IMG/VR virus record: IMGVR_UViG_3300029288_000086
Span: 1-64,000 of that record
DNA length: 64,000 nucleotides
Source: a virus
Lineage: Duplodnaviria; Caudoviricetes
Direction: 5' to 3' (one strand)
Under the pieces are notes generated by a model that did no database searches, was not told the DNA's origin, and was given only the letters and a program-made list of their open reading frames with translations. Below, piece after piece: positions 1-60,916 of this stretch (position 1 is its first letter; each line of letters starts with the position of its first letter). A program made the translations under genes and the position numbers.

Positions 1-52
1 CCCCATGAAAGATTTGTTTCATGGGCGAGAATTAGATAAAAGGAGAATAAAA

Positions 53-421
53 ATGGAAGAATATAGTGAATTAACGAAAAGCGAATTACAAGATATTGAA
101 GAAGAATTTGATACATTTTGGAAGCCTCTGATCATTAATGAAGATGGGTCAGTTAATTTAGATCATCTTAAAAGAGAACTCACAGACTATTCAACATTCG
201 TCGGAGAAGTTTCTAAGGTTTATGATAATGTGACCCATGGTAATATTAGTAAGCCAAATACTTCTGCCGAAGACGTTATTGCTGTCGCTAATGACGAAAA
301 TGATAAGTTTTATTACAATTTATTTAGAGACGATGTTTTATCTATTTTAGACGAAGAATCTTTGTCGTCAGAAGATAAATTAGAAGAAATTCGTGAATAT
401 TTTAAAGAAGAAAAAGAATAA
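53..421 (+). CDS. hypothetical acidic protein
   Basis: ORF 5..421; AGGAG RBS precedes ATG at 53; the upstream ATG belongs to the repeat site. Confidence 0.75.
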   Translation: MEEYSELTKSELQDIEEEFDTFWKPLIINEDGSVNLDHLKRELTDYSTFVGEVSKVYDNVTHGNISKPNTSAEDVIAVANDENDKFYYNLFRDDVLSILDEESLSSEDKLEEIREYFKEEKE

Positions 422-513
422 TAAAATTAACCACCATATGTACTGTATCGTTAGGCGATATGCCACTATATAGGGATTGTTACCCATGAAATCAATATTT
501 TATTAGGAGAAAT

Positions 514-1814
514 ATGAAAAAAATTAAAAAAATAAAACTTATAGCTGAAACAGACGATGGTGAAGAATGGGTTGTAATGAATAATCAATATAATAATGCC
601 GAAATAAAATTTGAAAGAGGTTTTGAAGAAGTTTCTTTTGATGGATTGCTCATGACGGCAATTCCAATAAATACATATCATATTATTATTAAAGATGCCC
701 AATAAAAGAACTATTTCATGGAGAATGGAATAAAAAATGGTTAGAGATTTAAAAGATTATGACAAAATGATTAATTTTGTAAGACAATTACAACTTGATC
801 AAAAGAAAGAACTTGGCATTGCTGGATGGGCAAGTAACTTTGAAATTTTTATTGATGGCGAAAAAGTTTTGCCGAAAGATGGTATTTTGCATCATTTTGT
901 TATTAATGCAAATATACCATGAAAAGACTTTTTGTGAGAAGGGATAACGCATGGTCACTATTTTAAATATTGATCAATTTACGAAAGAAATCAAGGGATG
1001 GATTCTAGCAACAGATATTGATGATGCTAGAAGACAAGCACAAATTGGATTTTTAAATGATTTGGCAGCAGAATTATATCAAATGACTTACTTGCCAAAA
1101 CTTACTAAATATCAGATGAAGTGCGGATATTTGATGTTACAATGAAAGGACTCTTTCATTAGAAAGGTAAAATATTATGTTTGTTTTGGATACAGGCATT
1201 TTAAATATTTTAGTGCACATCGCTTCTGTGTCTGCTTTATTAGCTTTTATTTTCGGATTAGTTTTTCTTTTAATTTATAGTAAAAATAAATCAATTTTGA
1301 TGCGTTTTTCTGGAATATTATTTATTAGTGCATTTTTTATTTTTTTTAGTAGTTCTACAACTTTAACATTAATGAATAATTTTGCAACAAGATTTGGAAC
1401 TCCCGAAAACGCATCAAATGTTGTTTACTTTAGCATTTACTGTATAATTATTGCATTTTCTTATATAATTATATCACTTATGAGTTTAATATTTGATTGG
1501 GGTTGTTCGAATAAAGTTATTTTTATAATTTTATTGTTATCAAGTTTTATACTTTCTATTTTATTGTTTGTTTTTATGCATGGTTTATGGTGGTGAAAAA
1601 ATTATATTCGTTAGATATTCGGGGAAGAGAAAAAGAATGGTCTTTTGAAATAATAGTAGATCCGAAATATATAGAAGAATGGAGAATTGATGGAATAAAA
1701 ATAAACGAAATTGTGAATAAAATTCCACAATGGTGGGTAGATATGTGGTTTTCTGTGAAGTTTTGGTGTTTTTGGCAAGATTTGTTCAATTTTAATAATC
1801 TATTTGCAAAGTAA
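514..1814 (+). CDS. run of small hypothetical ORFs (514-705, 737-922, 951-1145, membrane protein 1177-1596, 1587-1814)
   Basis: RBS-preceded co-oriented ORFs; the first three end inside repeat sites; 1177-1596 has ~4 hydrophobic segments. Confidence 0.7.
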
Positions 1815-1823
1815 GGAGAAAAT

Positions 1824-3122: not shown

Positions 3123-3551
3123 ATGAATAAAATAAAATTTGTGTTGTTGATGTTAGTTTTGTTGCTAGGATTCTGTCTAACTAGTTGTAACAGCTCTAAA
3201 ATAATAAATATATATGAGGATAATAATGGAGCCATGTTAAACATTAATGAAGACAATACCCTTAAAATAAGTTTGCCAAATGATTGTTCTGAAACTTTGA
3301 CTTGGGTAATTGTTGAGTTTACCTATATCAATAGCTATATGGAAACAATGAGCAAAAAGGATGTTTCGTTTGGAACATCACAATCTGACACTTGTATAAA
3401 TGGCTTAGATGTTATACAATTTAAACTAAAGTCAAAAGGACAATATTGGATTACTTTGGCATATGCTCAACCTTGGGAAAATGCAATTGCTAGTGATATA
3501 AATTTTTATGAAAATCATAAAATGTTTCAGCTAGCAGCAAATGTAAGATAA
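3123..3551 (+). CDS. divergent chagasin/I42-like lipoprotein (paralog of 1824-2270)
   Basis: Lipobox-like LTSC; ISLPN..W and YAQPWE align with the upstream paralog; NPxTGY loop degenerate. Confidence 0.65.
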   Translation: MNKIKFVLLMLVLLLGFCLTSCNSSKIINIYEDNNGAMLNINEDNTLKISLPNDCSETLTWVIVEFTYINSYMETMSKKDVSFGTSQSDTCINGLDVIQFKLKSKGQYWITLAYAQPWENAIASDINFYENHKMFQLAANVR

Positions 3552-3594
3552 TAAAATGACTATTTCATTGTAAAGATTAAAAAAGGATTAAAAT

Positions 3595-5403: not shown

Positions 5404-5433
5404 ATTACCCCATGAAATATGACTTTCATGCGG

Positions 5434-5599: not shown

Positions 5600-6586
5600 T
5601 TGCAAAACAAAGTTGAAAAGAAATTTGCAGTAAAAGCATTTCAGTGGGTAATGGAAAAACACAAAGATCAAGATTATCCTACTCGCAAGTTGGTTGAAGT
5701 GGGGAAAGACTTGTCTTGGCAAGATGCTAAGAAAATGCAAAAAGAAAATATTGGAAGTTGGATTGTATAGGAGAAAAATAAAATGAGAAAACTAACACCA
5801 AAAGCGACAGATTTGATCGAAACAAAATATGATAGTGATTTTTCAGAATTACAATTTGGATTTTGGGACGAAGAAGCCGAAGAATTTATCCCCCTGGATG
5901 GAAGCGCCGAAATGTTTAATATTATTTCTGAAAAAACAGGGTTATCAAGGACAGTTCTAGATTGTCTACAAATGTTTGCTGCCGATATTAATGATAGATT
6001 TAACGCTTTGAACAATGATGTCGCAGAGCTTGCGTCAAAAGTTTTTTAACCCACCATAAAACGAACATTTCATATGGTTAAAATAGAAAAAACATGATAA
6101 TTACTGATATTTCAACACCAAAAACAATAAAACTAAATATGAATGATAAAAATTATAGTGTTACTGCGCTCTATATTTCTGCTCCCACTTTAGAACTCTT
6201 AAACCAAGCAAAAGAGGGATGTATAAAATATTTGCCATTTTCTTATAAACTCCCTTGTGGCAATGTTTTTTCAATGTCTTCGGTAGAAGAATTAAATAAT
6301 CTTCACTTTAAAGACGTTCTCTGCCCTTGTGGAAATAAGAATCATTGGTTTGTTAGATGTGTTATTGATCCGTCATTAGGCAAAAGGACTGAAGATGTGG
6401 CTTAAAAAGAAGTCTAAACCTGAGAAAACTCCAGAGCAAGAGGCATATGAATATGGAATTAAATTATGTATTACAGAATTACAAACTGGAGTTAGTGATA
6501 AAAGAGAATTATTATCGCAATTTGAAAAATTTAAAAAATGGAATTATCCGCCTCGTTGTGGAACTTGTGGTGGAAGATTAGACTAA
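5600..6586 (+). CDS. small hypothetical ORFs (5600-5770 TTG start, 5783-6049, 6094-6405, 6395-6586)
   Basis: Co-oriented short ORFs; 5600-5770 (56 aa) follows AAGGAGG and is not in the supplied track. Confidence 0.65.
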
Positions 6587-6603
6587 AACATTGGAGAATT
6601 AAT

Positions 6604-8112
6604 TTGAATAAAATTTCAGTATTTGGTAATAGTGGATTTATTGGTAGCAGATTTTGTAGTATGTTTCCAGAAGAAATAGTAAAAATCCCAAGGGGGCAAA
6701 GAGAGTCGGAAACCAACGAAATTTTAAATTTTATCAGTACTACACATAATTATAATATTTACGATGATGTTCTAAAAGATCTCGATACAAACGTGGTTAC
6801 TATGTTGCAAATACTAGACAGTGCTAAAAAGAAATTTGGTAATGATTTTGTTTTTAATCAAGTCTCAACATGGTCTGTTTACGGAAATGTAGAACTACCA
6901 GCGAAAGAAGAATGTTTTTGTAATCCTACTGGCTTTTACTCTATTACGAAACGAACGGCAGAACAAATGCTTATCGCTTATTGTAAAATTTTTGATATTA
7001 AATATCGTATATTTCGTCTTTGTAATGTTATTGGCGAATCAGATAAAATCGTACCTAAGAAAAAGAATGCACTTCAATATCTTATTAATGAACTAAAAGA
7101 AAATCGAGAAGTAAATCTCTATCATAATGGTGATTTTCTTAGAGAATATATGTATGTAGACGACATTTGTTCTGCTATGCATTTGTGTATAAATAAAGGA
7201 AATACTAATGAAATTTATAATATTGGGAATGGAAAGAAAACTGTATTTGGAGATTTGATTAATTATTGTAAAAAACATTTAAATTCAACTAGCAAAGTGA
7301 ATAGAATTGGCCCATCTAAATTCCACGATATTGTTCAAACAAAAGATATGTATCTAGATGTTAGCAAAATAAAATCTTTAGGATTTAAACCAAAAACCGA
7401 TGTTTATAAAGCATTAGATGTTATTATGGACAACAAATATTTATTGCACGATCAAAAAGGATCAGATATGAAAATCAATTTACCAGACGTTACATTATTA
7501 GCTATTAGCTCTATAGAAATTCCTGCTACTATTAAAGCCTTACAAATTTCTGCGGAAAAAATAAATTTTGCTAAAATTGTATTGGTATCAGATGTTAAAC
7601 CCGATGATTTACCCGACAATATTGAATATAAATACTATCCTAAAATCACAAATACGCATGAATTTGATGTATTTGCTGTAGAACATTTGGGTGAATATTT
7701 TGATACCTCACATGTTTTGATGGTTCAGTATCACGGATATGTCATTCATCCCGAACTATGGGATGACGATTGGTTGAAATACGACTTCATTGGAGCTTTA
7801 TGGCCGGAGAGACCAGAATTCATTTCGGTGAGCACAAATACAATGGTGCGTGTCGGAAATGGCGGATTCTCACTTCGTAGCAAAAAATTGTATGACACAG
7901 TAGAAAAACTAGGATTAAAATGCGTTTATGATAGAGGCTACAGCAATGATGATGGACTTTTGAATTCTTACTATAGAAAAACTCTAATTGAAAACGGGAT
8001 AAATTATCCTCTCCCTGAAGCTGTTGCTAAGTTTTCCTATGAGAATTTAGTTCCCGAAAATGTAGGATTACAAACATTTGGCTTCCATCGTTACGCTGGG
8101 GCATATAATTAA
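6604..8112 (+). CDS. NAD-dependent sugar epimerase/dehydratase fused to DUF5672-like glycosyltransferase-associated domain
   Basis: GNSGFIG Rossmann motif, YSITK (YxxxK), YNIGNG; C-terminal YDFIGA..VGNGGFSLRSKK; likely TTG start at 6604 after GGAG. Confidence 0.8.
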   Translation: MNKISVFGNSGFIGSRFCSMFPEEIVKIPRGQRESETNEILNFISTTHNYNIYDDVLKDLDTNVVTMLQILDSAKKKFGNDFVFNQVSTWSVYGNVELPAKEECFCNPTGFYSITKRTAEQMLIAYCKIFDIKYRIFRLCNVIGESDKIVPKKKNALQYLINELKENREVNLYHNGDFLREYMYVDDICSAMHLCINKGNTNEIYNIGNGKKTVFGDLINYCKKHLNSTSKVNRIGPSKFHDIVQTKDMYLDVSKIKSLGFKPKTDVYKALDVIMDNKYLLHDQKGSDMKINLPDVTLLAISSIEIPATIKALQISAEKINFAKIVLVSDVKPDDLPDNIEYKYYPKITNTHEFDVFAVEHLGEYFDTSHVLMVQYHGYVIHPELWDDDWLKYDFIGALWPERPEFISVSTNTMVRVGNGGFSLRSKKLYDTVEKLGLKCVYDRGYSNDDGLLNSYYRKTLIENGINYPLPEAVAKFSYENLVPENVGLQTFGFHRYAGAYN

Positions 8113-9173
8113 TGGCAAAATATGATTACGTTATCGCCGGCGCAGGTCTTGCAGGAGCAACTTGTGCCAGAGAACTTACAGACAAAGGCTATAAATGTCT
8201 TGTTGTTGAACAACGGGCTTTTATTGGTGGAAATTGTCACGATGAATTAATTGGAGATGTATATTCTTCTTGTTTTGGTGGTCACTATTATACTACTAAT
8301 GACAAATTTTTATGGGATTATGTTAATAAATTCACACCACTTATCGAGTATAGACTAACAGCAAAATCAAATGTCAAAGGTAAAATTTATTCTTATCCTA
8401 TTAATTTATCAACCCTACATCAATTATGGGGTATTACTACTCCTAAAGAAGCAGAAGAAAAAATAGAAGAAGTCAGATTAAAAATAGATAATCCTGCAAA
8501 TTTTGAAGAAAAAGCATTAAGTGTTATTGGGCAAGAATTATATGAAACATTTATGTACGGATATCTCAAAAAGCATTGGGGCACGGAGCCAAAAAATCTT
8601 CCATTGAGCTTATGGGGTAGAATTCCAGTAAGAACATACTATGAGGATGTTTATTCTACAAGTAGATATCAAGGTGTTCCTGCTAATGGATGGAATTCTC
8701 TGTTTGATGCTATGCTAGATGGTATTGAAGTGAAATTAAACGAAGAATTTCAGCCTTCAAATATCTATGATAAATTAATTTATACTGGATCTATTGACAG
8801 ATTTTATGGGTATTGTTTTGGGGAATTAGATTATAGATGCGTAAATTATATTTATACCACTGAAGATATCGGTACTCCAATGATGGCATACCCAGGAATG
8901 GATGTGCCTTATGCCAGAAAATTCTGTTATAATTATTCCAATCCGTATGTTTCTCATAAAAATGTTGTTACTGCTATTGAGTATACTACCGGAAATGGCG
9001 GAGATATTTTAGCGTATCCTATCAATGATGAAAAGAATACTAAGTTATATGAAAAATATAAATCTCTAAATACAGAAAATGTCTTTTTCAGTGGCAGACT
9101 CGGCACCTACCGCTATTGGAATATGGATATGGTAATCGCATCCGCATTAAATTTAGTAAAAAAATTAACATAA
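8112..9173 (+). CDS. glf: UDP-galactopyranose mutase-like flavoprotein
   Basis: GAGLAG FAD motif, IGGNC, YTGSID, YP..., GRLGTYRYWNMD. Confidence 0.85.
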   Translation: MAKYDYVIAGAGLAGATCARELTDKGYKCLVVEQRAFIGGNCHDELIGDVYSSCFGGHYYTTNDKFLWDYVNKFTPLIEYRLTAKSNVKGKIYSYPINLSTLHQLWGITTPKEAEEKIEEVRLKIDNPANFEEKALSVIGQELYETFMYGYLKKHWGTEPKNLPLSLWGRIPVRTYYEDVYSTSRYQGVPANGWNSLFDAMLDGIEVKLNEEFQPSNIYDKLIYTGSIDRFYGYCFGELDYRCVNYIYTTEDIGTPMMAYPGMDVPYARKFCYNYSNPYVSHKNVVTAIEYTTGNGGDILAYPINDEKNTKLYEKYKSLNTENVFFSGRLGTYRYWNMDMVIASALNLVKKLT

Positions 9174-9192
9174 AGAAAAGGATAAAAATTAA

Positions 9193-9912
9193 ATGACATT
9201 ATTATCAGTTTGTATCCCCACATATGAAGCTGATGGAAGAGGGGTTGACTTTTTAAATTACAACTTTAAGCAGATGAAACTCCAGCTTTTTAAAGACTTC
9301 GAAATCGTAATCTCAGATGATTCGGCAGATGAAGTAATCAAAAACTATATAGAAGGCATCAAAGATTTAAATATTAAATATATAAAAAATGAAGGTAAAA
9401 AAGGCATTGCTGGGAATACCAATAACGCTATTAAAAATGCATCTGGTGAAATTATCCAAATCATGTGCCAAGATGACTATTTCTATAATAAATATTCTTT
9501 GCAAAAAATTGTAGATGCGTTTGATAAAAATATTGGTTGGATGGCGTCTATGTATATGCATACCAAAGACAGGCTGGGATTGTTCAAACAGCAAATTCCC
9601 ACATGGAATGACCAAATTTATTTTCAGAATACTATCGGTACACCATCTTGCTTATCTTTTTTAAACGATGATAATCCTGTCTTGGTTGATGAAAACCTAA
9701 AATGTTTTGTTGATTGTGAACAATATTATCGCATGTATAAAAAATGGGGATTGCCAAAAGTCTTGAAAGATTTAGTGATAGTTCAATATTTATGGGAAGG
9801 TCAAGCCACTAGCGGAATTACTCAAGAAATAATTAATGCGGAAGTCGCATATATCAATGAGAAAATAGCGAATATGAATAAGAAAGAAACTAATGAACAA
9901 AAATCTAATTAA
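9193..9912 (+). CDS. glycosyltransferase family 2
   Basis: SVCIPTY, FEIVISDD, NTNNAI..ASGE, QDD. Confidence 0.85.
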   Translation: MTLLSVCIPTYEADGRGVDFLNYNFKQMKLQLFKDFEIVISDDSADEVIKNYIEGIKDLNIKYIKNEGKKGIAGNTNNAIKNASGEIIQIMCQDDYFYNKYSLQKIVDAFDKNIGWMASMYMHTKDRLGLFKQQIPTWNDQIYFQNTIGTPSCLSFLNDDNPVLVDENLKCFVDCEQYYRMYKKWGLPKVLKDLVIVQYLWEGQATSGITQEIINAEVAYINEKIANMNKKETNEQKSN

Positions 9913-10555
9913 AGAACTGATAAAAAGAAACGATCCTGTATTCCTAGAGATAGGGGCTGGAGACGGAACCGATAGCAGAGAATTTATCAAACTATTTAAT
10001 GAAACAAATTTTGAATATTTTTTGTTTGAGCCAGATCAAAGAAATATATCCACAATTATAAATACTATACATGACGGCAGAGTTGTATTATATGAAGGAA
10101 TTGTCGGAGATAGAACTGGGATAGTCGATTTTTATCAATCAACCAAAAGCCCATCAACAGGAGAAGAATTAATATTTTCTAGCTCCATGAGAGAGCCAAC
10201 GGAAGTCCTTTATCGTACATGGCCTCAATTTGTTGGAGGATTTGCAAAGACAACTGTTAAGTCAACCAAGTTAGATGATTTTGTAGAATCTATGGGAATT
10301 GAGCGAGCGGACTTCGTTTGGCTAGACTGCCAAGGATGCGAAGATATGGTTATTTATGGTGGTAGAAATACGTTTGACAATAAAGTAAAATATTTATATA
10401 CAGAATATTCTGACAGAAAAATATATAAGGATGAACCAACATTGAACAATATTATGAGTATGCTTCCAAACTATAAAATTATAGAAACTTATCCTGCGCC
10501 CAAAAGTAATGGACTAGACGGCGATGTCTTGTTAAGAAACATGAAGGTGGAATAA
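9893..10555 (+). CDS. FkbM-family methyltransferase
   Basis: LEIGAGDG, FEPD, KLDD, WLDCQGCE. Confidence 0.85.
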   Translation: MNKNLIKELIKRNDPVFLEIGAGDGTDSREFIKLFNETNFEYFLFEPDQRNISTIINTIHDGRVVLYEGIVGDRTGIVDFYQSTKSPSTGEELIFSSSMREPTEVLYRTWPQFVGGFAKTTVKSTKLDDFVESMGIERADFVWLDCQGCEDMVIYGGRNTFDNKVKYLYTEYSDRKIYKDEPTLNNIMSMLPNYKIIETYPAPKSNGLDGDVLLRNMKVE

Positions 10556-10557
10556 TT

Positions 10558-11241
10558 ATGTATTTATATAAAAAAGAAATGTATAATGATTTTAAGTTTC
10601 CATTCGATGGATTGGAGAATATTGAACAAAATTACAGTCAAGCGCTTCAGGACTTATTCGTACTTTCTGCGCTGAATGGGAAAAAGAATGGGCTATTTTT
10701 AGATATAGGTGCGTCCTCGCCAATATTTATTTCGAATACATATCTTCTAGAAAAATTCTTTAAATGGACTGGAATATGCGTTGAAATTGATGCTAGTATG
10801 AGATCATTATACGACGCACAAAGAACCTGTCATTTTTTTGGATCAGATGCATTGACTCTGAACTATAGAAACATTCTAGGGAATAATAAAAGGTATGACT
10901 ATTTATCTTTAGACATTGAACCCATGGGGAATACTTTAGCATGTTTAAAATTATTGCCTTTAGATGAATATAGATTCTCCTGTATAACCTATGAACATGA
11001 TTTTTATTCAAAGGAAACACCAGTTGAATATAATGAAGAGGTTAGAGCAGAATCAAGAAACGTATTGCAATCATTGGGATATGTTTTAGTTAATGGTAAT
11101 GCGGAAAACATGGGCAACGATCCTTATGAAGATTGGTATTTAGATAGCCAATATTTTGATGTTGAAACGATTAATAAATTCAAAAGAGATAATGATAGTC
11201 CTCTTCGGGCCAGAGATTATATGTTGAGGAATGCTGTATGA
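10558..11241 (+). CDS. FkbM-like methyltransferase
   Basis: SQALQD, FLDIGAS, SNTYLLE, DYLSLDIE, EDWY. Confidence 0.8.
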   Translation: MYLYKKEMYNDFKFPFDGLENIEQNYSQALQDLFVLSALNGKKNGLFLDIGASSPIFISNTYLLEKFFKWTGICVEIDASMRSLYDAQRTCHFFGSDALTLNYRNILGNNKRYDYLSLDIEPMGNTLACLKLLPLDEYRFSCITYEHDFYSKETPVEYNEEVRAESRNVLQSLGYVLVNGNAENMGNDPYEDWYLDSQYFDVETINKFKRDNDSPLRARDYMLRNAV

Positions 11242-14317: not shown

Positions 14318-14342
14318 CAAATATTGAAATATGTGTTATAGT
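14314..14342 (+). promoter_or_regulatory. sigma70-type promoter
   Basis: TTGACA-17-TATAGT with TGn. Confidence 0.75.
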
Positions 14343-14364
14343 GAATAGATTATAAAATTAAATT

Positions 14365-48272: not shown

Positions 48273-48295
48273 AACGACCATTTCATGAGGATAAT

Positions 48296-49381: not shown

Positions 49382-49851
49382 TAAGAATAATCGAAGATGA
49401 TATTTTCAATTCACCCATAAACACCATTATTTGCCATCAAGTAAATTGCCAAGGTGTCATGGGAAGCGGTATTGCTAAGGAAATTAAATCTCGTTATCCG
49501 TCCGTATATGAACAATATAAATCTTTTTGTGGCAGTTTAGATAGAAAGTACCTTTTAGGAATGGGACATTTGTCCATAGACAATCGCACCAATAGAGTTA
49601 TTGGAAATTTATTTGGGCAAGATGGTTATGGGAAAGGGTTGCAAACAGATTATTTTGCTTTACAATCTGCTCTCGGAGATGTAAAGAAATTTGCAAAAGA
49701 TCATCACCTCCTTGTCGCTATACCGTTCGGTATAGGGCGTGGTTTTGGAGGTGGAGATTGGAATATTGTGTATAAAATAATAGAAACCGTTTTTGAAGAT
49801 TATGACAATGTTGTTATTTATAAGCTACCAGATGAAACACGCATTTCATGA
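49378..49851 (+). CDS. macrodomain (ADP-ribose binding/hydrolase) protein
   Basis: HQVNCQGVMGSGIA, NLFGQ, IPFGIG.G.GGGDW. Confidence 0.85.
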   Translation: MIRIIEDDIFNSPINTIICHQVNCQGVMGSGIAKEIKSRYPSVYEQYKSFCGSLDRKYLLGMGHLSIDNRTNRVIGNLFGQDGYGKGLQTDYFALQSALGDVKKFAKDHHLLVAIPFGIGRGFGGGDWNIVYKIIETVFEDYDNVVIYKLPDETRIS

Positions 49852-50938
49852 GGTAAAAATATGAAAAAAGAAGAGTTCATAAAGAAAGTTAAACAAATTT
49901 CTAACCCTAGGATTATAGAAAGTATGGATGAATATTTAATTCTTCTAAATACTTATTGGGTCGTTGAAAGTGCAGATTTTGGTAATTTTGATCATTTCTG
50001 TACGCCACCAGTAAAACTTTCTTATAAACCTCATGAGGGTGGATCCGCTGTTCAAAAGAAAATTGACAATTTTTATAAACGAGAATCCGCACTTAGAGAA
50101 AAATATTTTAGATGGTTTGATGAAGCAATTAATAAGGAGAATATATGAATATAGATTTAGAGAATGTTAAGATTTATGAAGCTTTTAGACGATGCATAAA
50201 TAGTACACCACTAGAAGAAATTCATTGGTTTGAGAATGGTGAGGAAGTTGTTATTGATAAAGAAGTTATAAGTGAGTTTGAAGATATTGGATTAAACAAT
50301 ATTGATTTTGCTACAATGAAGTATTGGAAAAGGGTATAATGTGAAAACTAAATTTAAATTAGCAGGAAGTTCAGCCAACGTGGTTTTACGTGATGGAAAA
50401 ATATTTTATGATAGAAAGTATGCAGATGATTATTTAGTTTGCGAACAAGCCGAAACATCAAATGTTTTCTCTTTTCAAGAACATTTTTTGCCCATGATAA
50501 AAAAGACCACACAATCCTCTTCATTTGAAGACGGCAGATATCATGTTTATTTTACGGGAACGGTTGTTTGGAACGGTGGGCATAATAGTGAAAGCGGAAT
50601 CTGGGAGGGTTGGGATAAACCAGAATTAGATTATGTGCATTGGAAAAAACTAAATGACACCATGAAAGAATAGTTTCATGGGCCTAAAAGGAGAAGAATG
50701 AAAGAAATTGAAGAAATTCACGAATTAGATAACCTAAAAATTATTACAATGAGATATGTCACTAGTGAATATGGTAGCCATTATGAAATAGAATTAGAAG
50801 GTGGAATTTTTGCTAATTTCCATGGCGGAAGTGTTGGCTATGAAAACGCAACTCCATGGTATTACATGGAAAAAAGAAATAAGTTAGAATTATTAGACAC
50901 TTGATAAATAAACACATCTATGATAATATTATAGGTAT

Positions 50939-51014
50939 GGGACGTTAGCGCAATTGGTAGAGCACTCGCCTCCAAAGCGAATGGTTAGGGGTTCAAGTCC
51001 TCTACGTCCCGCCA
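50939..51014 (+). tRNA. tRNA-Trp(CCA)
   Basis: GGGACGT/ACGTCCC acceptor, anticodon loop CTCCAAA, GGTTCAAGTCC, encoded 3' CCA. Confidence 0.92.
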
Positions 51015-51167: not shown

Positions 51168-51704
51168 ATGAAAGCATTCAATCCAGAAGAACATATGATT
51201 TTTAATGGCATTATTGGAAGTAGATTATATGGAACAAATAGCGAAACTTCAGATACTGATTTTCGTGGAATTTGTCTTCCGACATTAAAAGTCTTGCTTG
51301 ATCCATTCAATCGTTTCGAGCAAAAAGACTCAGGCTTTAACGAAGATGACCGTGTAATTTATTCATTAGATAAGTTTATTAAATTGTGTGCAGATTCAAA
51401 TCCGAACATTCAAGAACTCTTGTTTGTTCCAGAATCAAAAACTTTATTTAAAACTAAACAATGGGATTTGATTTTAGAAAATAGACACTTGTTTTTAAGC
51501 AAGAAAGCGAAGCATACTTTCCTTGGGTACTCCTGGGCACAAATTCAAAAAGCTAAAGTTCACCGCAAATGGTTTTTAGATCCACCAAAAGAAAAACCAA
51601 CAAGAAAAATGTTTGGATTAACAGATTCTCCAATTATTTCGGGAGAAGGCTTACAGGCGGCATCTAATATTAGATTTGATTTATTTACAGAATCTTTGCC
51701 GTAG
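51168..51704 (+). pseudogene. RlaP/YcgL-like nucleotidyltransferase, apparently C-terminally truncated
   Basis: GSRLYGT...SDTDFRG, KF..L...NPN..ELLF, FLGY; ends abruptly where CCA-enzyme sequence begins in the +1 frame. Confidence 0.6.
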
Positions 51705-52725
51705 AGATTTTACTATTAATGCAATGGCATATAATGAAGACGAAGGTTTGATTGATCCGTTTGATGGGCTACAAGATATAGAAAATCATCTTATTAAATG
51801 CGTAGGAAAAGCGAACGATAGATTTCGAGAAGATGCATTAAGAATGCTTCGTGCGATAAGATTTTCCGCGCAATTGGGGTTTTCTATAGAAGAAGAAACA
51901 GAATCATACATCATAAATAACTGTAATTTAATTGCAAATGTATCATCAGAAAGAATTAATGCTGAAATTTGTAAAATACTAATATCAAATCACCCTGAAA
52001 AAATAGCATCAATATATCTTAATAATTTATCAAAACATTTTCTTCCAGAACTTGATGCGTTGTTTTCTTGTGAACAAAATACGCCTTGGCACATCTATAA
52101 TGTAGGAATTCATACTCTTGAAGCACTAAAAAACAGTAAAAATGATTTAGTACTGAGATTAGCAATATTATTCCACGACATAGGTAAGCCTTCCTCCAAA
52201 ACCACAACACCCGAAGGGATAGATCATTTTTATCATCATCCAATAAAATCAGCAGAAATAGCAAAAGAGACAATGACAAGGTTACATTTCGATAATAAAA
52301 CTATTGAGGATGTCGTAACTTTAGTTTCTTATCACGATGCAACGATAGATACAAATAAACGTTCTATCAAAAGAATGTTAAATAAAATTGGCGAAGAATT
52401 GTTTTTCAAATTGCTTGATTTGCAATACGCAGATTGTAGTGCTCAAAATCTAGAATTGTCAATAGAAAAAATAAATTTATTGCCAAAAATCAGAAAAATG
52501 GCACAAGAAATTTTGACAGAAAAAGAACCGTTTGGCATAAAGGATCTTGCAATTAATGGAAACGACATGATGGCACTAGGCTACAAACCCAACAAAGAAT
52601 TAGGCAATGCTTTATCAACAATTTTGGAATTGGTTATTGATGATTCAACCTTAAACACAAAAAATCAATTACAAGAAATTGCTTCAAAACTCTTGACAGA
52701 TTCAACAAACTGTGGTAAACTTTAA
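51676..52725 (+). pseudogene. cca: CCA-adding enzyme (class II, with HD domain) lacking its N-terminal head
   Basis: RRDFTINAMAY, IDPFDG, RFREDALRMLRAIRF, VSSERI, HDIGKP, LAINGND; motif A (GGxVRD..DxD) absent. Confidence 0.75.
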
Positions 52726-53231: not shown

Positions 53232-53254
53232 ATACACAATGAAAGGAATATTTC

Positions 53255-54874
53255 ATGGGACTTAAAAAATTATCACAAGACTTAATTAATAATATGTATT
53301 TTGATTATGATGACGGACAAGAAATTATAGAAGAAACGGCATTAGCTGCGTTATTGCAATCAGAAATAGCATTTTGCTATCCGCAACCAAATAAGTCAAA
53401 AGAAGATGAATCTGTTATAGCATTGGGCGTAAATTGCAATGATATATTTTGGTGGGGTTGTGCAGATTTGGAGCTTTTTAATTATTCTGAAATTCAATCT
53501 TTGTATGAATCATCTTTTGATAAAGAGGGAAATGAAAAACCATGGGGATCAATTATTTGGTCTTGTTTGCATAGAAAAATGAGACCGCAACACCCAGTTG
53601 AAGATATGATGAAAAAGCAAGGATTTTGGACTAATGATTTAGAAGCACTACCTGTTCGTGTGAATACTGGATAGTCTCCATGAAAGAGTCATTTCATGGG
53701 ACAATGACCACTGTATATAGTGGTAGTATGACAGATATGGTAGAAGATATGAAGGCAATGAAAGGATAATATGAATTTTTTACAAAAAATATTAAAAAGA
53801 GAAGAATATAGAGCAATAAGAGAATATGATGAAAAAGAAAGAGTTGCTGCTCACAATCAACTAATGTCAGAATTATCTTTATTAGAAAATCCAGAATTTA
53901 GATTCGACAATATAAAAATATTGTTAGATTATGAAAATTCGCCAGAATATAAACTAATTGAACTAAAAAGAAAATATTTAAGATTGGTGAAAAGAATTTG
54001 CATTTTTAATAATATTCCTATAGAAAATAAAGATACTGTTGGAAATATTAATTCAAAATTATCAAAAATTTACTCAAAATTAAATGTTCCGGGAAATACA
54101 ACATTAAAAAAATATGTTGAATTGTTATCAGAAATAAATAATAGCATATAAGGGAACAAATTATGATAATAAAATATTTTTGTGATTGTGGAAAAGAATT
54201 AAATTTTGATCAATTTGAATATGACGACTACCCTAAGACTATTTTTTGTGGATGTGGGTCTAAATACGATAAAGGATTTTGTGAAGAATGTGGGCATTTT
54301 CATGTTGACCAAATGTATGTTGCTCCAAAAGAAACTATGCAACAGCAAAAAGATGGTCAGCATCATAATGTGGTTATATAGGATTCACAGGGTTTTAAAA
54401 TGGTTGTTTATTATTCTAATCGTAATTATTATTTTGGAAATGATAAATATATTTTAAGGAGACGATATGAATAAGATTTATAGCGTTGATAAGAATACTA
54501 GCGTTGGAGAATTTTGCTCAGGAATATTTATTGATCTGTTTTCAGCAATACAACACGCAAAACATATTTCTAAAACTGAAGGAAATATAACATATGTTTA
54601 TCAACATATTCTCAAAAACAAAGAATATGTCCCTGATGGAATGATTTTTGATTCAAGTACTTTTGAATCAGAACCAGAATAGGAGAAAAATATGTATGTA
54701 AAAAAATTTGATAAAATGGGAATAGATGAATTTACAACATTATCATTTCCTTCAGAAAAAGAACTGCTGAATTTTCTAGAAAATAATCCCAATTATGCGT
54801 TACACTGGGATAATGAATATTTATGGGAATTAAATAAAATTTATGTTAATGGTTGGGAAGATCCACGCCCATAG
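53255..54874 (+). CDS. small hypothetical ORFs (53255-53674, 53771-54151, 54163-54381, 54467-54682, 54692-54874)
   Basis: Co-oriented short ORFs; 54163-54381 is Cys-rich. Confidence 0.65.
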
Positions 54875-54908
54875 AACAAGTATTTCATGATATAAAATAA
54901 GGATAAAT

Positions 54909-55319: not shown

Positions 55320-55361
55320 TACCATGAAATAAGGATTTTATTGGTCTGGAAGGAGAAATAA

Positions 55362-56135
55362 TTGAAACTTAAAGATATAGCAAAAGAATCGTATTATCAT
55401 GAAAAAGGTGGAATGCTTTTAAAAGGTGATTGTTTAGATTGGATGCCGAAATTACCAGACAAGTCTATTGACATGATATTATGTGATTTACCTTACGGTA
55501 CAACAAAATGTCGTTGGGATACAATTATCCCACTAGATAAATTATGGTTGCAATATAATAGAATTATAAAAGATAATGGATCTATATGTTTGTTTGCTCA
55601 ACTTCCTTTCGATAAAGTTCTTGGATGTAGCAATTTGGAAATGTTACGATATGAATGGGTATGGGAAAAGGAACAAGGAACAGGGAATTTGAATGCCAAT
55701 AAAATGCCTTTAAAAAAGACTGAAAATATTCTTGTTTTCTATAAAAAGTTACCTTTATATAATCCTCAAAAAACCATTGGAAGACCATATGAAATTGAAA
55801 GAGAATATAATGATAACGAAATATTTGGGAAAACAGGAACAAGAGATGGATATATTACTAAGAATGATGGTTTTAGATATCCAACAAATATTTTAAAGTT
55901 TAATCGAGAACTGAAGAACAGATTACATCCAACGCAAAAACCAGTATTATTACTTGAGTATTTAATCAAAACTTATACTAATGAAAATGAAATTGTCTTA
56001 GATAATACGGCAGGATCGTGTGGTGTGGCAATTGCCTCTAAAAACATTAATCGTAAATGGATTTGTATTGAGAAAGATCAAAAGTATTGTGATGTTTCTA
56101 TAGACAGAATTAAGAATTGGACAATAACCCCATGA
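55362..56135 (+). CDS. N6-adenine/N4-cytosine DNA methyltransferase (beta class)
   Basis: DLPYG, HPTQKP, VLDNTAGS; paralog of 33753-34508; bracketed by sites 55324 and 56132. Confidence 0.9.
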   Translation: MKLKDIAKESYYHEKGGMLLKGDCLDWMPKLPDKSIDMILCDLPYGTTKCRWDTIIPLDKLWLQYNRIIKDNGSICLFAQLPFDKVLGCSNLEMLRYEWVWEKEQGTGNLNANKMPLKKTENILVFYKKLPLYNPQKTIGRPYEIEREYNDNEIFGKTGTRDGYITKNDGFRYPTNILKFNRELKNRLHPTQKPVLLLEYLIKTYTNENEIVLDNTAGSCGVAIASKNINRKWICIEKDQKYCDVSIDRIKNWTITP

Positions 56136-56166
56136 AATGCAAATTTTATTAAAAGGAGAATGAATA

Positions 56167-57721
56167 ATGACCACTACAAAAGAAAACGCCGAAACAGCAT
56201 CAGAATCATTAAAAAATCGAGCTTCAAAATCGCTTATCCAGCTCATCTATCAGGCATCTCAAGGGCAACAATATGTAAATGTGCAATCAGCAAGAAATAT
56301 TATCGAAGATATTGTCGCAGCATCACTTTTAGAAAATCAATTGTTAATAAACACAGCTATAAAAACACCAAAGGAGAAAAATTAAAATGACAGACGAAGG
56401 CAAAAAATTGCAGCAAATTCAAATTCAAAAGAGTTATAATTTTTTAAAAGAAGAACGAGTAGTTACAAGCAAAGATACAGCATTTAAATGGATATATGAA
56501 ATCGCCCAAGACTACGATGGAGCAGAAGATATCGGAGGTTTACGAGCAGTAATTGATGAACTCGCCGCCTATGCCTTGCTTGGGAAAGAATGTTCAGAAT
56601 AATATGAGTAAATCTCAAATATATGACCCAAATACCTTGACAAGAATGAGCTTTCGTGATAGACTATATCAATGGCTATCAAAGAAATTACCTTGGAGAT
56701 TGGTCTGGTTTTGTGTAATTAGAGCATTGGGTATATACAATTCTTATCGAAGATTATACCCAAATACTTTCAATATGCCTACATCTGGACTTACTGTAAT
56801 AGAGTTAATTCATAGGTTGGATGAAAAAAGATTCGATGAATGGGAGCAATAATTATTGAAAAAAATATGCTTTTATTGTGGAGAAGAAATTAATGAAAAA
56901 GATTTGTATTGGTCAGAACCAATAGAAGGTGCTTATCCCTCAAGATATGGTAACTTATTTTTTCATAAAGAAAAATGTTACAGAAAAATAAACAATATAC
57001 ATCGGTATATAAAGGACAATACTGAAAAGATATTAGAAACACTTACAAATAGCAATCCTCAAATACCAAAAAGACTAGATTCAAAAATACCTATAAACAA
57101 AAAAGAAGTAAAGAAAAATGAGAAAATTAAAACAGAAAAAACAAAAAGCAAGCATTATTCTAAAAGAAAGAGGTAGGAAACATGATTTCAAATTCTGAAA
57201 ATGAAATTTTAGATGCTATTCATTTTCCGCCAAAGAAAATTAATGTTGGAAAATATAGCGTAGAAATTAAAAATAAATTGCAAGAGGGAAATAAAGTAAA
57301 AATTGATATTGAAAAATATCGTCCACAAAAGGATTCTGGATCAATTACTGATACTTTCTGGAAATTTTTAGAAGACAATAAAGACACTGTTTTTACAATT
57401 TTCGCTCGTAATAAATATGGGATTATGTGGGGAATAGAAGAAGATGCGAGGTGGTCTTTATATAGCGATTTTTTAATTAAAGTTGAATAATTACAATAAA
57501 ACAATAATTTCATGGAGAATAATATGACAGTTGCATCTTATGTAATTTTAGGAATAGTCGGATGGATAATGTTTGGATCAATTGTTTTGGGTGGTATTGA
57601 CAAAAATCTAGAAATTACCAATTGGAAATTGCATGCTGTTTGGTGGTTGAGATTATTGGTAAATTTATTCTGGCCTATTATTGCTGTTATATATTTGAGT
57701 AAAAAGAATCACACGAAATGA
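56167..57721 (+). CDS. small hypothetical ORFs
   Basis: 56167-56385, 56387-56602, 56604-56852, 56856-57176, 57182-57490, 57512-57721. Confidence 0.65.
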
Positions 57722-57749: not shown

Positions 57750-58301
57750 ATGATAAATAAATATATTATTGATAGTGATATTACACATATCGTCTTAAGA
57801 GAAACAGACACCGAATATATGGAAACATTGATTGATACTGAAGATTTACATAAATTAATAAATTTTAAATATAGTTGGTTTCCGGCATATTTGCAAAGCC
57901 CAAAGGCATACTACGCTCATTGTACAGAATATTTATCATCAAATCATGGCGTTCCAATTAATCGAACAATAGGGTTGCAGTGTTTTGTTTTAGACTTACA
58001 AGGGAACGATAATTGCCACGTAGATCATATAAACCATAATGCGCTAGACAACAGAAAAGAAAATTTAAGAATTATTAAAGCAAAAAACAATTTGACAAAT
58101 AGAAAATCAAGAAATTGTAACAATACTTCTGGGCATAGAAATGTATGCAAAATAAACAACAAATGGGTCGTACAATTACAAGTCAACGGCAAAAATACAA
58201 GATTAAAATCTTTTCCATTGGATAAATTAGATGAGGCTAGTGCATACGCAGAAGAGATGAGGCAATTACATTATGGAGATTTTGCAGGATTTGATTTATG
58301 A
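57750..58301 (+). CDS. HNH endonuclease with AP2-like DNA-binding domain
   Basis: VDHINHNALDNRKENLR, NTSGHRNV, W..Q..G. Confidence 0.85.
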   Translation: MINKYIIDSDITHIVLRETDTEYMETLIDTEDLHKLINFKYSWFPAYLQSPKAYYAHCTEYLSSNHGVPINRTIGLQCFVLDLQGNDNCHVDHINHNALDNRKENLRIIKAKNNLTNRKSRNCNNTSGHRNVCKINNKWVVQLQVNGKNTRLKSFPLDKLDEASAYAEEMRQLHYGDFAGFDL

Positions 58302-59017
58302 CTTATCAAATATATAATCAAAACAATACAAAAGTTTGTAGTCTACCAAAAGTAGATTTAATATATGCGGACATGATCTACGAGAATGAAAACCTTTCAT
58401 GGATTTATGATTTTTTCGATTTACTTAAACCCAATGGAATTTTTATCGTCCAAACGGATTTTCATACAAATTATTTAGTGAGAGATGTTCTTGAGAATAT
58501 CCGTCAAGCAACATTTGTAAATCATTTGGTTCAAAAAAACGAATGGGGCAACCATCCTAAGAATAGATTTCATCAATGCTATGATGACATTATAATTTTC
58601 TGTAATGGCAAAAATTGGAAATTTTATCCAGAAAGAATTCAAGTAGATAAAGTTACAAAAAACAAAGGACTGAATCCTTCAGGTAGGCAAACAAAACAAG
58701 CAACAGCATGGATAGACGATGTTTGTTTAACTACAACTTCAAAAGAACGAGTCAAGAAAGAAGATGGGCATTTGATTCGATGGCAAAAACCCTTAAAATT
58801 ATTTGACAGAATTATTGCCCCATTTACTGACGAAGGAGATGTAATATTAGATCCTTTTATGGGCAGTGGAAGTCTTGGAGAATGGTGTATAAAAAATAAT
58901 AGGAATTATGTCGGAATTGAATTAGATAAAAAGATTTTTGGACTAGCAAAACAAAGATTGGAAAAACTTACCCCACGAAATATCACTTTCATTGAAAAAG
59001 GACAAAAATATGTTTAA
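58298..59017 (+). CDS. DNA methyltransferase (beta class) with atypical catalytic motif
   Basis: VDLIYADMIY in place of DPPY; WQKP; ILDPFMGSGS; GIELD. Confidence 0.75.
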   Translation: MTYQIYNQNNTKVCSLPKVDLIYADMIYENENLSWIYDFFDLLKPNGIFIVQTDFHTNYLVRDVLENIRQATFVNHLVQKNEWGNHPKNRFHQCYDDIIIFCNGKNWKFYPERIQVDKVTKNKGLNPSGRQTKQATAWIDDVCLTTTSKERVKKEDGHLIRWQKPLKLFDRIIAPFTDEGDVILDPFMGSGSLGEWCIKNNRNYVGIELDKKIFGLAKQRLEKLTPRNITFIEKGQKYV

Positions 59018-59677
59018 TGATATGCCAAAGGGTTTTCCTAAAAATATAGGCATTATAAAGATACCTATAGGGCATCCTTATTCATATTCTAAAAATAAAA
59101 GAAAGGAGAATACAATGGAAATTTTAAGTAAAGATAAAATAAATAAATTAATAGATATGTATAGCATTGAAGATACCGTCAATACTTTTCTATCAAAAAC
59201 TATCAATAAATTTCCACTTACAGAAGATGAATTAAAATTAGCATTTCAGATTATTGATCGCTGTTTTGTAAAATATTATTTAGATTAGAATGGAAAATAA
59301 AATGATTAAATATTTTCACGAATTAACATTTGCTGAACATTTTGATATTTATAATAGGGCATTATCATGGAACAGAATAAGAAAAAAATATCCCGAGCCT
59401 CCCTGGTGCTCCAATGAAAACGCAGTTCAGGGATTGATGGGATGTGACAATTTGATGATACATGCAATTAAATCTGAACTAGATTGTCAAGAATGTAGAT
59501 TTTATAAGAGAGGAAAAACATGAACGATATTAGAATGTTAATAGAGCAACAATTAAAAGATTTTATTGATTTTCTAGCGGAAAGAAAATACTTTTTATTA
59601 TCTGAAAAAGAACATTCTAGAATCACTTTTAAAATTTTACAAGAATTAATTAATGAATATATGGAGAAAATTTAATT

Positions 59678-60505
59678 GTGCAAGCATATTTAAACATTGT
59701 AAAAGATATTTTAGATAATGGCGTATTAAAAGAAAATCGTACAGGTGTAAACGCTCTTGCTATTAGTGGAGCTATGTTTTCACATGATATGCGAGAAGGC
59801 TTTCCATTGCTTACCACAAAGAAAATGTCTTTAAAAAACATTGCAGTAGAATTAGAATTTTTTATCAAAGGCTTGAGCAGTAAAAAATGGCTACAAGATA
59901 GATGGAATTTTATATGGAATAGCTGGTGTAATCCACAAAAAGTTCCATATGGTACAGACGAAGAAACCAAGCGAAGAATGCGGGAAGAAGATGATTTGGG
60001 AGCAATTTATGGAAAGCAATGGCGTAATTTCGGCGGAGTCGACCAGCTAAAAAATGTTGTAAATACCTTGAAGGCAAATCCAAATGATCGCAGGATGATC
60101 GTAAGTGCTTGGAATCCACCAGAGCTAAACCAAATGGCACTTCCTCCTTGTCACTTAATGTTTCAAGTAATTGTAATTAATAATACAATTAATCTAAACT
60201 GGTATCAGCGCAGTGTAGACACAATGTTGGGATTGCCCTATAATATCGCATCTTACGGATTGTTGCTAGAACTTTTGGCAAAAGAATCCAATCTAATTCC
60301 TGCTAAATTATGTGGAATGCTAGGTGATGTGCATATTTATGAAAATCATATTGAAAATACAAAAATTCAATTATGGCGTGAACCAATGGAATTGCCATCT
60401 ATAGAAATAACTAATTTTACAAATATTTTTGATTGGACATACAAAGACTTTTCTTTAGAAAATTATAAATCACATCCTGCAATAAAATTTGATATAGCGG
60501 TATAA
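59678..60505 (+). CDS. thyA: thymidylate synthase
   Basis: NRTG, FPLLTTKK, YGKQWR, SAWNP, ALPPCH, QRSVD..LGLPYN, HIYENH. Confidence 0.97.
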   Translation: MQAYLNIVKDILDNGVLKENRTGVNALAISGAMFSHDMREGFPLLTTKKMSLKNIAVELEFFIKGLSSKKWLQDRWNFIWNSWCNPQKVPYGTDEETKRRMREEDDLGAIYGKQWRNFGGVDQLKNVVNTLKANPNDRRMIVSAWNPPELNQMALPPCHLMFQVIVINNTINLNWYQRSVDTMLGLPYNIASYGLLLELLAKESNLIPAKLCGMLGDVHIYENHIENTKIQLWREPMELPSIEITNFTNIFDWTYKDFSLENYKSHPAIKFDIAV

Positions 60506-60916
60506 GGAGGTAAAATGACATCAAAAGAGGAAAAAGATTTCACAGAGAAAGTAATTAGATTGTCATACAAATGTGCAAACGAATTGAACATCAAGAGAGA
60601 AGATATTGTTAGTCAAATTTTTATAAAATGGCTTATCGACAAAGTAGATAATTTTGAAAAGGAATCTCATAAAAATGAAGACAAAAATATTGATATTGCT
60701 GTATAATCCTAAAACCAAAGAATACATTGAATCACTATCCAATGAAAGTGACATTTCATGGTGTGAGGGTTGGGTTAAGGCAATGGATTTTAGTGACATG
60801 TTTTTTATTAAGAGATGGATATTGAGATTAAGGTTAGAGTATAAGTTTAGGGATTTAGGGCTAAGTTTGAGATGGAAAAAAGTGTTAGTATTTGATGGGG
60901 TTAGGGGTGTGGTGTA

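Follow-up and report, generated by a model that had tools for sequence, protein, structure and literature searches.

The first 64,000 positions of the 143,090-bp phage contig IMGVR_UViG_3300029288_000086 (hereafter the window; the contig is estimated to be 78% complete) contain an array of short palindromic sites of the form ATRAAA-N6-TTTYAT, which lie at the junctions of accessory genes and whose presence there is confirmed. Based on how the central N6, here called spacer or center, behaves in related phages, we consider it somewhat probable that these sites are protein-recognized duplex dyads at which a phage tyrosine recombinase makes crossovers in an ordered exchange of modules between related phages. 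Each site consists of two inverted arms (core TRAAA/TTTYA, extended to the 11 bp ACCCCATGAAA in this lineage) around the 6-bp center. In the following, G000 denotes the genome of the source phage (143,090 bp), and G001, G002, G005, G006, G009–G011 and W01 (MT835469) are the comparison genomes.

The strict pattern matches 47 times in the window compared to 0.54 expected matches, the largest shuffle giving 3. A weight matrix built from the strict-pattern copies, with which window and whole genome were scanned against shuffles, adds five degenerate copies (starting at 23745, 25510, 28603, 54871, and 58975) as well as a doubtful match at 39825 inside the primase-helicase gene. This brings the total to 52 sites in the window, or 53 with the doubtful one, and to 96 in the genome against approximately 0.6 expected in shuffles; an earlier note on this DNA, which had proposed such a scan, had come close with a hand count of about 54. 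Outside the window lie 44 further sites, mostly at 113–143 kb and thus in the other half of the same plus-strand arm, while the late arm holds only five. The earlier note had also described two gene blocks and everything beyond 60.8 kb as free of sites: This is wrong for the glycan block, which contains the strict copy at 17203, right for the replication block except for the doubtful 39825, and right beyond 60.8 kb for the window (last site 60742–60759) but not for the genome with its 44 additional copies. The extended consensus given there is real: Base counts in 83 copies yield ACCCCATGAAA-N6-TTTCATGGGGT, C accounting for 41–62 of the copies at positions −4 to −1 and G for 35–49 at +18 to +21. 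Conserved positions run from −5 to +22 in G000 (28 bp, 11-6-11), the same span being weakly visible in SPbeta, and the left arm reads as the reverse complement of the right, down to a matching degeneracy (C/A at −1, G/T at +18). The placement at gene junctions was likewise borne out. The upstream reading frame terminates at most approximately 18 nt from the site, and in about 30 of 90 cases its stop codon is a TGA or TAA within ATRAAA itself; the next start codon follows at a distance of 10–245 nt. Translationally coupled blocks, namely the glycan and the replication block, are bracketed by sites and uninterrupted except by 17203.

The evidence that carries the proposed role comes from the comparison with G005, a complete genome of 160 kb with 103 sites. 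Both genomes have 50 identical 6-nt spacers in common (null mean 3.7, maximum 13), of which 49 are collinear, the exception being the doubtful 39825. In an ordered spacer alignment 46 pairs match exactly, four differ by one mismatch and none by two, which amounts to four differences in 300 nt or 98.6% identity per base; even assuming 90% neutral identity, such conservation has a P of approximately 1e-9. Among the alignments of G000 and G005 longer than 100 bp none exceeds 93.5% identity and most range between 65% and 85%, typically 70–80%. For 42 of the 48 shared sites, identity in both flanks is no better than random, and the exact identity around a shared center extends over a median of 19 bp. 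Within the arms, the purine/pyrimidine (R/Y) positions differ in 19–29% of the shared pairs, so that conservation is highest in the center. The distribution of spacers is bimodal, pairs being either identical or unrelated, a pattern that favors conserved sites combined with gain and loss of whole units over drift. Pairing sites by their centers carries an ascertainment bias; however, the number of shared spacers, their collinearity and the 46:4:0 distribution argue against this bias as the source of the signal. The G005 sites that remain unmatched lie mostly in its 77–103 kb stretch, the counterpart of the missing part of the G000 contig. With G001, W01, G009–G011, and SPbeta, G000 shares no more spacers than expected by chance, and in this data set the addresses are consequently conserved only among closer relatives.

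A second property of the centers emerged within single genomes, where 396 independent sites from eight genomes were compared with 2000 position-wise shuffles. Not one of the 396 centers is self-complementary, against 9.6 expected, and none of the 2000 shuffles reaches zero. Identical centers within one genome are depleted (2 versus 7.6 expected, P 0.016), and inverted duplicates of a center within a genome were absent from all eight. Constant inverted arms enclosing an asymmetric 6-bp center that is unique within the genome and conserved between genomes point to the overlap region of tyrosine-recombinase sites, in which strand exchange depends on identical centers.

The DNA between the conserved addresses has been replaced extensively: In 24 of 48 intervals between neighboring shared spacers no tblastx homology was detected. 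The interval 33720–34505 holds an N6/N4 DNA methylase gene in G000 (33753–34508, plus strand), a single-gene cassette, versus 267 bp of unrelated DNA in G005. In the interval 35321–44379 a replication module of 9.0 kb in G000 stands opposite one of 16.0 kb in G005, and their polymerases are 27% identical. The window encodes three N6/N4 DNA methylases in all (33753–34508, 55362–56135, and 58298–59017); the first two are diverged paralogues, each forming an exact single-gene unit between two sites. Moreover, each arm of a site travels with its own flank. Replacement in register and without reordering argues for addressed, equal crossing-over between diverged collinear genomes.

The earlier note had suggested examining whether breakpoints of gene gain and loss between relatives fall in the N6 spacer; in G005 as well as in two further comparisons, breakpoints of gain, loss and replacement coincide exactly with the sites. 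W01 (176 kb, 34 sites) and G006 (29 sites) align with 93% nucleotide identity over 122 kb, and 13 of 27 informative sites are exact breakpoints of homology at which both genomes retain site and spacer. Up to the outer edge of such a site they are as much as 100% identical; beyond it, no identity is left. The arm on the replaced side holds the differences (12 versus 1 in the right-conserved class). In the metagenome contig L204, whose recombinase is 94% identical, 100% identity is regained exactly at the left edge of the site at 30596.

Two tyrosine recombinases of the phage are equally good candidates for the enzyme that would act on these sites. One of them, a protein of 302 residues that we call arm-type, is encoded within the array at 26867–27775 on the plus strand (PF00589, E 7e-21), preceded by a sigma-70-like promoter at 26814–26842 (plus strand; TTGACA, 17 nt, TG-TAATAT) that was assigned by consensus match only. 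Aligned to the XerA/XerC-like structure 4a8e, the protein presents the motifs GLR, PHTMRR, RHE, and IY and has retained the catalytic R, HxxR, H, and Y. Across the aligned homologues Y275 never varies; the remaining catalytic residues are found in each of the five homologues encoded in the arm, whereas YopP and MrpR do not preserve them. Its closest solved relatives are of the Xer type (E 4e-18 to 7e-9), while IntI4 is matched weakly (E 0.003 over 70 residues). Orthologues in conserved synteny exist in G001 (44–45% identity) and G005 (75–76%). The outer arm ACCCC is common to G000 and G005 and missing in G001 and hence tracks the arm-type recombinase (75% versus 45%) and not the late-arm type (48–50% in both), a correlation across three genomes only. 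The other candidate, a YomM-like recombinase that is catalytically intact by sequence, is encoded at genome positions 78243–79238 on the minus strand inside the late/structural arm. It is present in every array-bearing genome examined, and SPbeta YomM has a Lys at the position of the second Arg. Beyond the recombinases, a ParB/GmrSD_N-like protein of 175 residues (genome 134636–135163) is 48% identical to its counterpart at W01:28018–28413, versus 38% for the polymerase, and its gene sits directly after a palindrome in both G000 and W01; no connection to the sites could be made. A blastp-based phyletic profile for a site-binding protein returned only replication and late proteins as shared, blastp being too insensitive here.

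According to the mechanism we propose, a recombinase dimer would bind both constant arms, and strands would be exchanged across the 6-bp center, only between sites with the same center. Within one genome all centers are different and asymmetric, which would prevent intragenomic recombination and with it deletions and inversions. Relatives carrying the same centers in the same order could, in contrast, cross over in register whenever their genomes reside in the same cell, be it as co-infecting phages or as phage and prophage. Such a crossover could occur at any junction, even without homology in the flanking genes: One crossover would yield a full-length hybrid, two would swap the intervening module. 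We infer that a recombinase acts on the sites, that identical centers are needed, and which enzymes come into question.

Several observations weigh against this reading. G005 carries a methylase related to that of 33753–34508 (type A) at a different address, namely that of the type-B gene, and three orthologous junctions of G000 and G005 have different spacers, so that some events must have occurred outside the center. In W01 and G006, breakpoints are found at 46 of 119 non-site junctions compared to 12 of 19 site junctions (Fisher P 0.078). Because junctions lacking a site break frequently, the sites are not required for mosaicism; they are preferred, not sole, places of mosaic joints. In laboratory hybrids of SPbeta and phi3T, 15 of 16 junctions fell into ordinary homology (10.1101/2020.05.06.055103). 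The co-occurrence of motif and recombinase, another check put forward in the earlier note, holds in G001 and G005 but fails in the complete genome G009 (30 sites), from which the arm-type recombinase is absent, and in G011 (54 sites), which retains a fragment of 69 residues; the late-arm type, for its part, also occurs in the array-less Lactococcus phage 949. In distant relatives, only 5–6 bp per arm are strongly conserved. Finally, the sites are tightly linked to stop codons and ribosome-binding sites, possibly because they take part in expression.

All genes of the arm lie on one strand and the sites lie between stop codon and ribosome-binding site, so the transcribed palindrome might act as an intercistronic hairpin with an effect on mRNA stability, processing or termination or on the translation rate of the following gene, and classical terminators were indeed not seen on the plus strand. 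We regard this as very unlikely. At the single variable stem position, the R/Y pair, G000 has G–C in 46, G–T in 12, A–C in 25, and A–T in 1 copies, and G001 has A–C in 25, G–T in 16, A–T in 19, and G–C in 5, so that neither genome displays pairing covariation; compensatory changes are missing, 25 of the 84 G000 copies carry an A·C mismatch, and the association between changes at the two paired positions is negative. Predicted RNA stems reach approximately −10 kcal/mol (z −3.7) in the best G000 copies only, whereas they remain at 0 to −3 kcal/mol in many other G000 copies and in nearly all copies of G001 and SPbeta. No T-run was seen 3′ of the sites, and the loop, which corresponds to the center, is position-specific and conserved, a feature for which a generic hairpin has no need. 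Nor is there an enrichment of sigma-70-like promoters (81 versus 83 expected in 22–38 kb). With covariation, T-runs, and promoter enrichment missing and stems unstable in the relatives, the conserved property is a dyad-symmetric duplex with fixed spacing, the putative binding site of a symmetric protein.

Known regulatory elements were compared with the site and rejected. A sigma-70 promoter with ATGAAA as −35 element would require a −10 box 17 nt further on; positions +22 to +29 past the site are, however, nearly free of information (0.08–0.31 bit) and lack a fixed −10 box, and no room for a start site remains in G001, G009, and G011, where the palindrome is directly followed by the ribosome-binding site. 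A YonO promoter is excluded because this RNA polymerase serves the late operon, which it transcribes from a single start ahead of yonK (PMC5467207), and the sites belong to the early arm. Half-sites or spacing of the CcpA cre element and of Rex, CRP/FNR, ComK, PlcR, ArgR, and LexA sites do not appear to fit. The SPBRE box, derived from six MrpR-bound promoters as ATACAAAAAATATGTAT, is unlike the site, and the 36 sites of SPbeta are not at SPBRE positions. A match of the window recombinase to MrpR was not obtained among structures in the PDB.

Two short elements accompany the palindromes in the part of the arm outside the window. LexA-box-like elements (ATAGAAC-N4-GTTCC) at genome positions 115892–122101 are fused 1–2 bp upstream of five palindromes; two of these elements are perfect GAAC-N4-GTTC, and extra copies of TAGAACA/TGTTCTA follow just downstream. 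This fits the SOS-controlled antirepressor of SPbeta-like phages (10.1101/2025.11.27.690993). A second short motif, CTTAACAG(A), occurs 4–27 nt after seven palindromes and ahead of the ribosome-binding site (genome 119053–126830).

A duplex dyad need not be a recombination site. Its symmetry, the fixed spacing, and the approximately 11 bp between half-site centers are equally those of an operator or insulator at which a dimeric DNA-binding protein of phage or host origin, such as a repressor with recombinase fold similar to MrpR/SroF of SPbeta, regulates or insulates translational units, the breakpoints then merely following from short intergenic gaps. The bracketing of coupled gene blocks, the position between stop codon and ribosome-binding site in all relatives, the breaks at site-less junctions, and the ability of a recombinase-fold protein of SPbeta to repress via dispersed sites (PMC10516654) agree with this. 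We nevertheless judge an operator to be unlikely, because it would leave the best conservation to the center that its protein does not contact (98.6% versus 71–85% at the R/Y positions of the arms), and because it predicts neither that centers are unique within a genome and never self-complementary nor that a center persists though both neighboring genes have been replaced. Furthermore, the operator of SPbeta differs in sequence and location, and the window recombinase keeps the catalytic residues that MrpR does not. Another possibility is that the sites have a different primary role and that general or phage machinery uses their arms, or the identical patch of 16–28 bp, as micro-homology. The PeSL elements, repeated intergenic motifs that mediate modular shuffling, are a precedent (PMC2839356, PMC4122927), laboratory SPbeta-like hybrids form by homologous recombination (10.1101/2020.05.06.055103), breakpoints fall at the site edges on either side of the center, and a methylase cassette has moved between different addresses. 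For such a process, mismatches in arm and center should count alike, yet the center is far better conserved; exact patches, whose median length is no more than 19 bp, are a poor substrate for general homologous recombination; the promoter-plus-terminator structure of the precedent is missing; and the strict dyad, the fixed 6-bp spacing, the lack of self-complementary centers and the scarcity of duplicates would go unexplained. Hence, this explanation seems rather improbable as well.

The earlier note had interpreted the array as an integron-like system in which single genes are captured and excised as circles via any two sites. One to a few genes between sites, sites at the 3′ ends of genes as in attC arrays, and a tyrosine recombinase within the array invite this comparison, which we hold to be highly improbable all the same. 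The 28-bp duplex dyads contrast with folded attC sites of 57–141 bp, and no hairpin is conserved in the relatives; all centers within a genome are different; neither an attI/Pc platform nor excised circles came up, although no search was aimed at an attI-like unique site or at circles in reads; and the recombinase is nearest to the Xer type and only weakly similar to IntI4. Above all, content is replaced in register and order is not reshuffled, as 49 of 50 shared centers are collinear, a pattern of equal crossing-over at matching addresses. What stands of the phage-encoded exchange system is that sites delimit exchangeable modules and that their spacers behave like the overlap region of a recombinase; the integron analogy does not.

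Regarding the distribution of the motif, G001, whose polymerase is 72% identical, has 75 sites and G010 has 17, whereas G002 has none and in Lactococcus phage 949 the number of sites is not above chance. Bacillus phage SPbeta contains 36 copies of TRAAA-N6-TTTYA, compared to 4.3 in shuffles, which lie over stop codons, before ribosome-binding sites and beside terminators and are unannotated. A scan of genome contigs for the G000-type site returned scattered single matches and no prophage array. No paper describing the motif was found in the literature searched, and neither a review on SPbeta nor the study on hybrid phages (10.1101/2020.05.06.055103) mentions the palindrome. To judge from the searched literature, SPbeta-like phages harbor a class of dispersed, position-coded sites of recombination type that has not been described before; to it the present phage adds a diverged lineage with G+C-extended arms and especially clear conserved addresses.

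The individual sites of the window are given here with their spacers and, where the ordered spacer alignment assigns one, their G005 partners; strand is undefined for all of them, and degenerate copies are those from the weight matrix. Leftmost are 5–22 (GATTTG) and 486–503 (TCAATA), whose spacers recur at G005:103186 and, in the same order, at G005:103421. The upstream gene ends with a TAA inside 702–719 (GAACTA, G005:104297) and with a TGA inside 1142–1159 (GGACTC, G005:104702). While 3551–3568 (TGACTA) is without partner, both 5412–5429 (TATGAC, G005:106086) and 6056–6073 (CGAACA, G005:106701), the latter ahead of the glycan block, are paired with one mismatch. The site within this block, 17203–17220 (GCAACA), corresponds to G005:118009. 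Past the block, the partnerless 22383–22400 (GTGTTC) is followed by 22789–22806 (CGACTG, G005:123635) and by two sites without partner, 23218–23235 (TTTTAC) and 23538–23555 (CGCTTG). Next to the degenerate copy 23745–23762 (ATGAAT...TTTTAT, spacer GACTTA) lie 23929–23946 (TGCATA), 24422–24439 (TGAGGA), and 24935–24952 (CTGATA), all without partner. Partners reappear with the degenerate 25510–25527 (ACGAAA, spacer CCGGTA, G005:124636) and with 25776–25793 (GAACCA, G005:124983), the last site ahead of the arm-type recombinase gene.

Downstream of this gene, a degenerate copy at 28603–28620 (GTGAAA, spacer GTTCAA) precedes two partnerless sites, 28890–28907 (GGGAAA) and 29510–29527 (TAAAGG), and 29716–29733 (TAGAGA, G005:127229). 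The site whose left edge marks the resumption of identity in L204 is 30596–30613 (TAGTGG); 31413–31430 (TGCCCG) pairs with G005:129739. At 31679–31696 (CGCAAG) the right flank is homologous to that of G005:101485, whose spacer differs (CTAGAA). No partner exists for 31933–31950 (TTAGTG) and 32532–32549 (TCGGCA); 33342–33359 (GCGTCA) matches G005:130560. The methylase cassette is bordered on the left by 33720–33737 (CTGCCA, G005:130850) and on the right by 34505–34522 (CAGATA, G005:131135). After 35079–35096 (CGAAAA, G005:131439) comes 35321–35338 (CAAGAG, G005:131657), the left anchor of the swapped replication module, and immediately ahead of the replication block is 37029–37046 (GCATTA).

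Past the replication block the array resumes with 44379–44396 (TGGTAT, G005:147688) and 44708–44725 (TGAAGT, G005:147920). Apart from the partnerless 44953–44970 (TCAAAC), the adjoining sites are all paired: 45284–45301 (TAAATG, G005:148163), 46975–46992 (TTGAAG, G005:149094), 47308–47325 (TGGAGA, G005:149535), 47514–47531 (GCGCAA, G005:149962), 47972–47989 (CTATTA, G005:150519), and 48269–48286 (CGACCA, G005:150720). Without partner are 49832–49849 (CACGCA), 50662–50679 (GAATAG), 53239–53256 (GGAATA), and 53680–53697 (GAGTCA), behind which a degenerate copy lies at 54871–54888 (ATAGAA, spacer CAAGTA). The second methylase cassette extends from its left border 55324–55341 (TAAGGA) to its right border 56132–56149 (TGCAAA, G005:151907). 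Toward the end of the array follow 57496–57513 (CAATAA), paired with G005:153736 with one mismatch, the degenerate 58975–58992 (ACGAAA, spacer TATCAC), and 60742–60759 (GTGACA), whose spacer is identical to that at G005:156495 while the flanks are 82–83% identical.

The genome that harbors this array carries all genes of approximately its first 64 kb and of the part beyond approximately 113 kb on the plus strand (early/accessory arm) and the late and structural genes, 65–112 kb, on the minus strand. By its gene content the source phage is a distant member of the wider SPbeta-like group. It has the hallmarks of a YonO-type single-chain RNA polymerase, a Pol III alpha-type replicase, a YomM-like late recombinase, and a long one-strand accessory arm; the polymerase (genome 106654–109200, minus strand; PF05183, 23% identical to SPbeta YonO) is what places it there. 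In blastp searches of G000 against SPbeta, YonO was recovered with an E-value of 2e-28, YorL with 3e-19, YomM with 2e-11, and the terminase, which is 33% identical, with 8e-97. The replication block includes a DnaG–DnaB fusion (38490–40454) and the Pol III alpha replicase (40456–43695).

Further genes of the window deserve mention. A 16-kb block for sugar-nucleotide metabolism and glycosyl transfer at 6094–22386, partly conserved in G001 and G005, includes an epimerase/dehydratase–DUF5672 fusion at 6538–8112 and may serve to glycosylate either the virion or DNA. The large subunit of ribonucleotide reductase is encoded in two frames approximately 230 bp apart, 62726–63538 and 63773–64000 (continuing to genome position 64633), whereas its G001 counterpart is a single gene of 567 codons. 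Rfam reported no intron in this gene at the gathering threshold, and the interruption could be an unrecognized intron, an intein remnant or a true split. Three tRNA genes at 36216–36289, 36432–36507, and 50939–51014 comprise two tRNA-Met and one tRNA-Trp; the tRNA-Met pair lies in a gene-poor, G+C-richer (39%) stretch of 1 kb directly ahead of the replication block. Beside tRNA-Trp, overlapping frames at 51168–52725 encode an RlaP-type nucleotidyltransferase and an HD-domain protein resembling CCA-adding enzymes and poly(A) polymerases, and the G001 homologues of this pair are placed elsewhere (10459–12734). The HNH endonuclease genes at 57750–58301 and 60917–61630, the latter with an AP2 DNA-binding domain, are paralogous and related to G001:43945–44499; both are probably free-standing homing endonucleases.

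Mosaic phage genomes have long been debated as products either of random illegitimate recombination and selection or of dedicated “linker” sequences. The site described here is countable and bears the statistical hallmarks of dedicated site-specific exchange, and its centers are better conserved than any gene. The broader claim, that SPbeta-like phages contain approximately 100 mutually incompatible natural sites genome-wide whose 6-bp centers are addresses for recombinase-driven, in-register exchange, we put forward tentatively, as a possibility somewhat short of an even chance. If true, anti-defense genes, methylases, and even the replication module could be exchanged without flanking homology while gene order and integrity are kept; this would be an evolved route to mosaicism, different from integrons, from pdif modules, and from shuffling driven by homology. 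It would explain the rapid turnover of accessory and counter-defense genes in widespread large temperate phages and provide a natural set of orthogonal recombination sites. The idea is directly testable, as SPbeta, a genetically tractable phage of Bacillus subtilis, has the same class of motif.

Comparison with known systems shows where the sites resemble these and where they depart from them. Integrons likewise feature arrays of small genes, a recombination-type site after each gene and a tyrosine recombinase encoded nearby. They have one capture site and promoter, and their attC sites are long imperfect palindromes that are recognized as folded single strands and conserved in structure rather than sequence. 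The sites of G000, in contrast, measure 18–28 bp, lack pairing covariation, and have stems that are unstable in the relatives. In cassette exchange with lox or FRT sites (recombinases Cre and FLP), constant inverted arms surround a short asymmetric center, and only identical centers recombine. Like heterospecific lox or FRT sites, the phage sites combine mutually distinct asymmetric centers in one molecule, so that a segment enclosed by any two could be exchanged in register. The lox/FRT systems, however, are engineered with two to three variants of 13-8-13 layout, whereas approximately 100 natural variants per phage genome have arms of 5–11 bp and a 6-bp center; moreover, we infer the requirement for identical centers here only indirectly, from the 98.6% conserved, collinear centers of G000 and G005.

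With Xer/dif sites and the pdif modules of Acinetobacter plasmids (PMC6449649) the phage sites share the 28-bp 11-6-11 geometry, their large number in accessory regions, and the flanking of adaptive genes by sites. The two arms of dif are unlike and are bound by XerC and XerD, while in the phage site one arm is the reverse complement of the other, a hint at a single binding protein. In addition, pdif modules move as units from plasmid to plasmid and are acted upon by a host enzyme, whereas here the order of sites is fixed, their content is replaced, and the candidates we propose are phage-encoded. The PeSL elements of T4-like phages (PMC2839356, PMC4122927) are also repeated intergenic motifs that border variable modules in hyperplastic regions. 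They consist of promoter and terminator and support homologous recombination between any copies; the phage site has neither promoter nor terminator and instead a strict dyad with a position-specific, conserved 6-bp center. The SPBRE boxes (PMC10516654; 10.1101/2025.11.27.690993), finally, come from the same phage supergroup and are dispersed intergenic sites involving a recombinase-fold protein, but they exist in approximately 10 copies in promoters and are bound by a catalytically dead monomer, whereas the sites described here number 36 in SPbeta.

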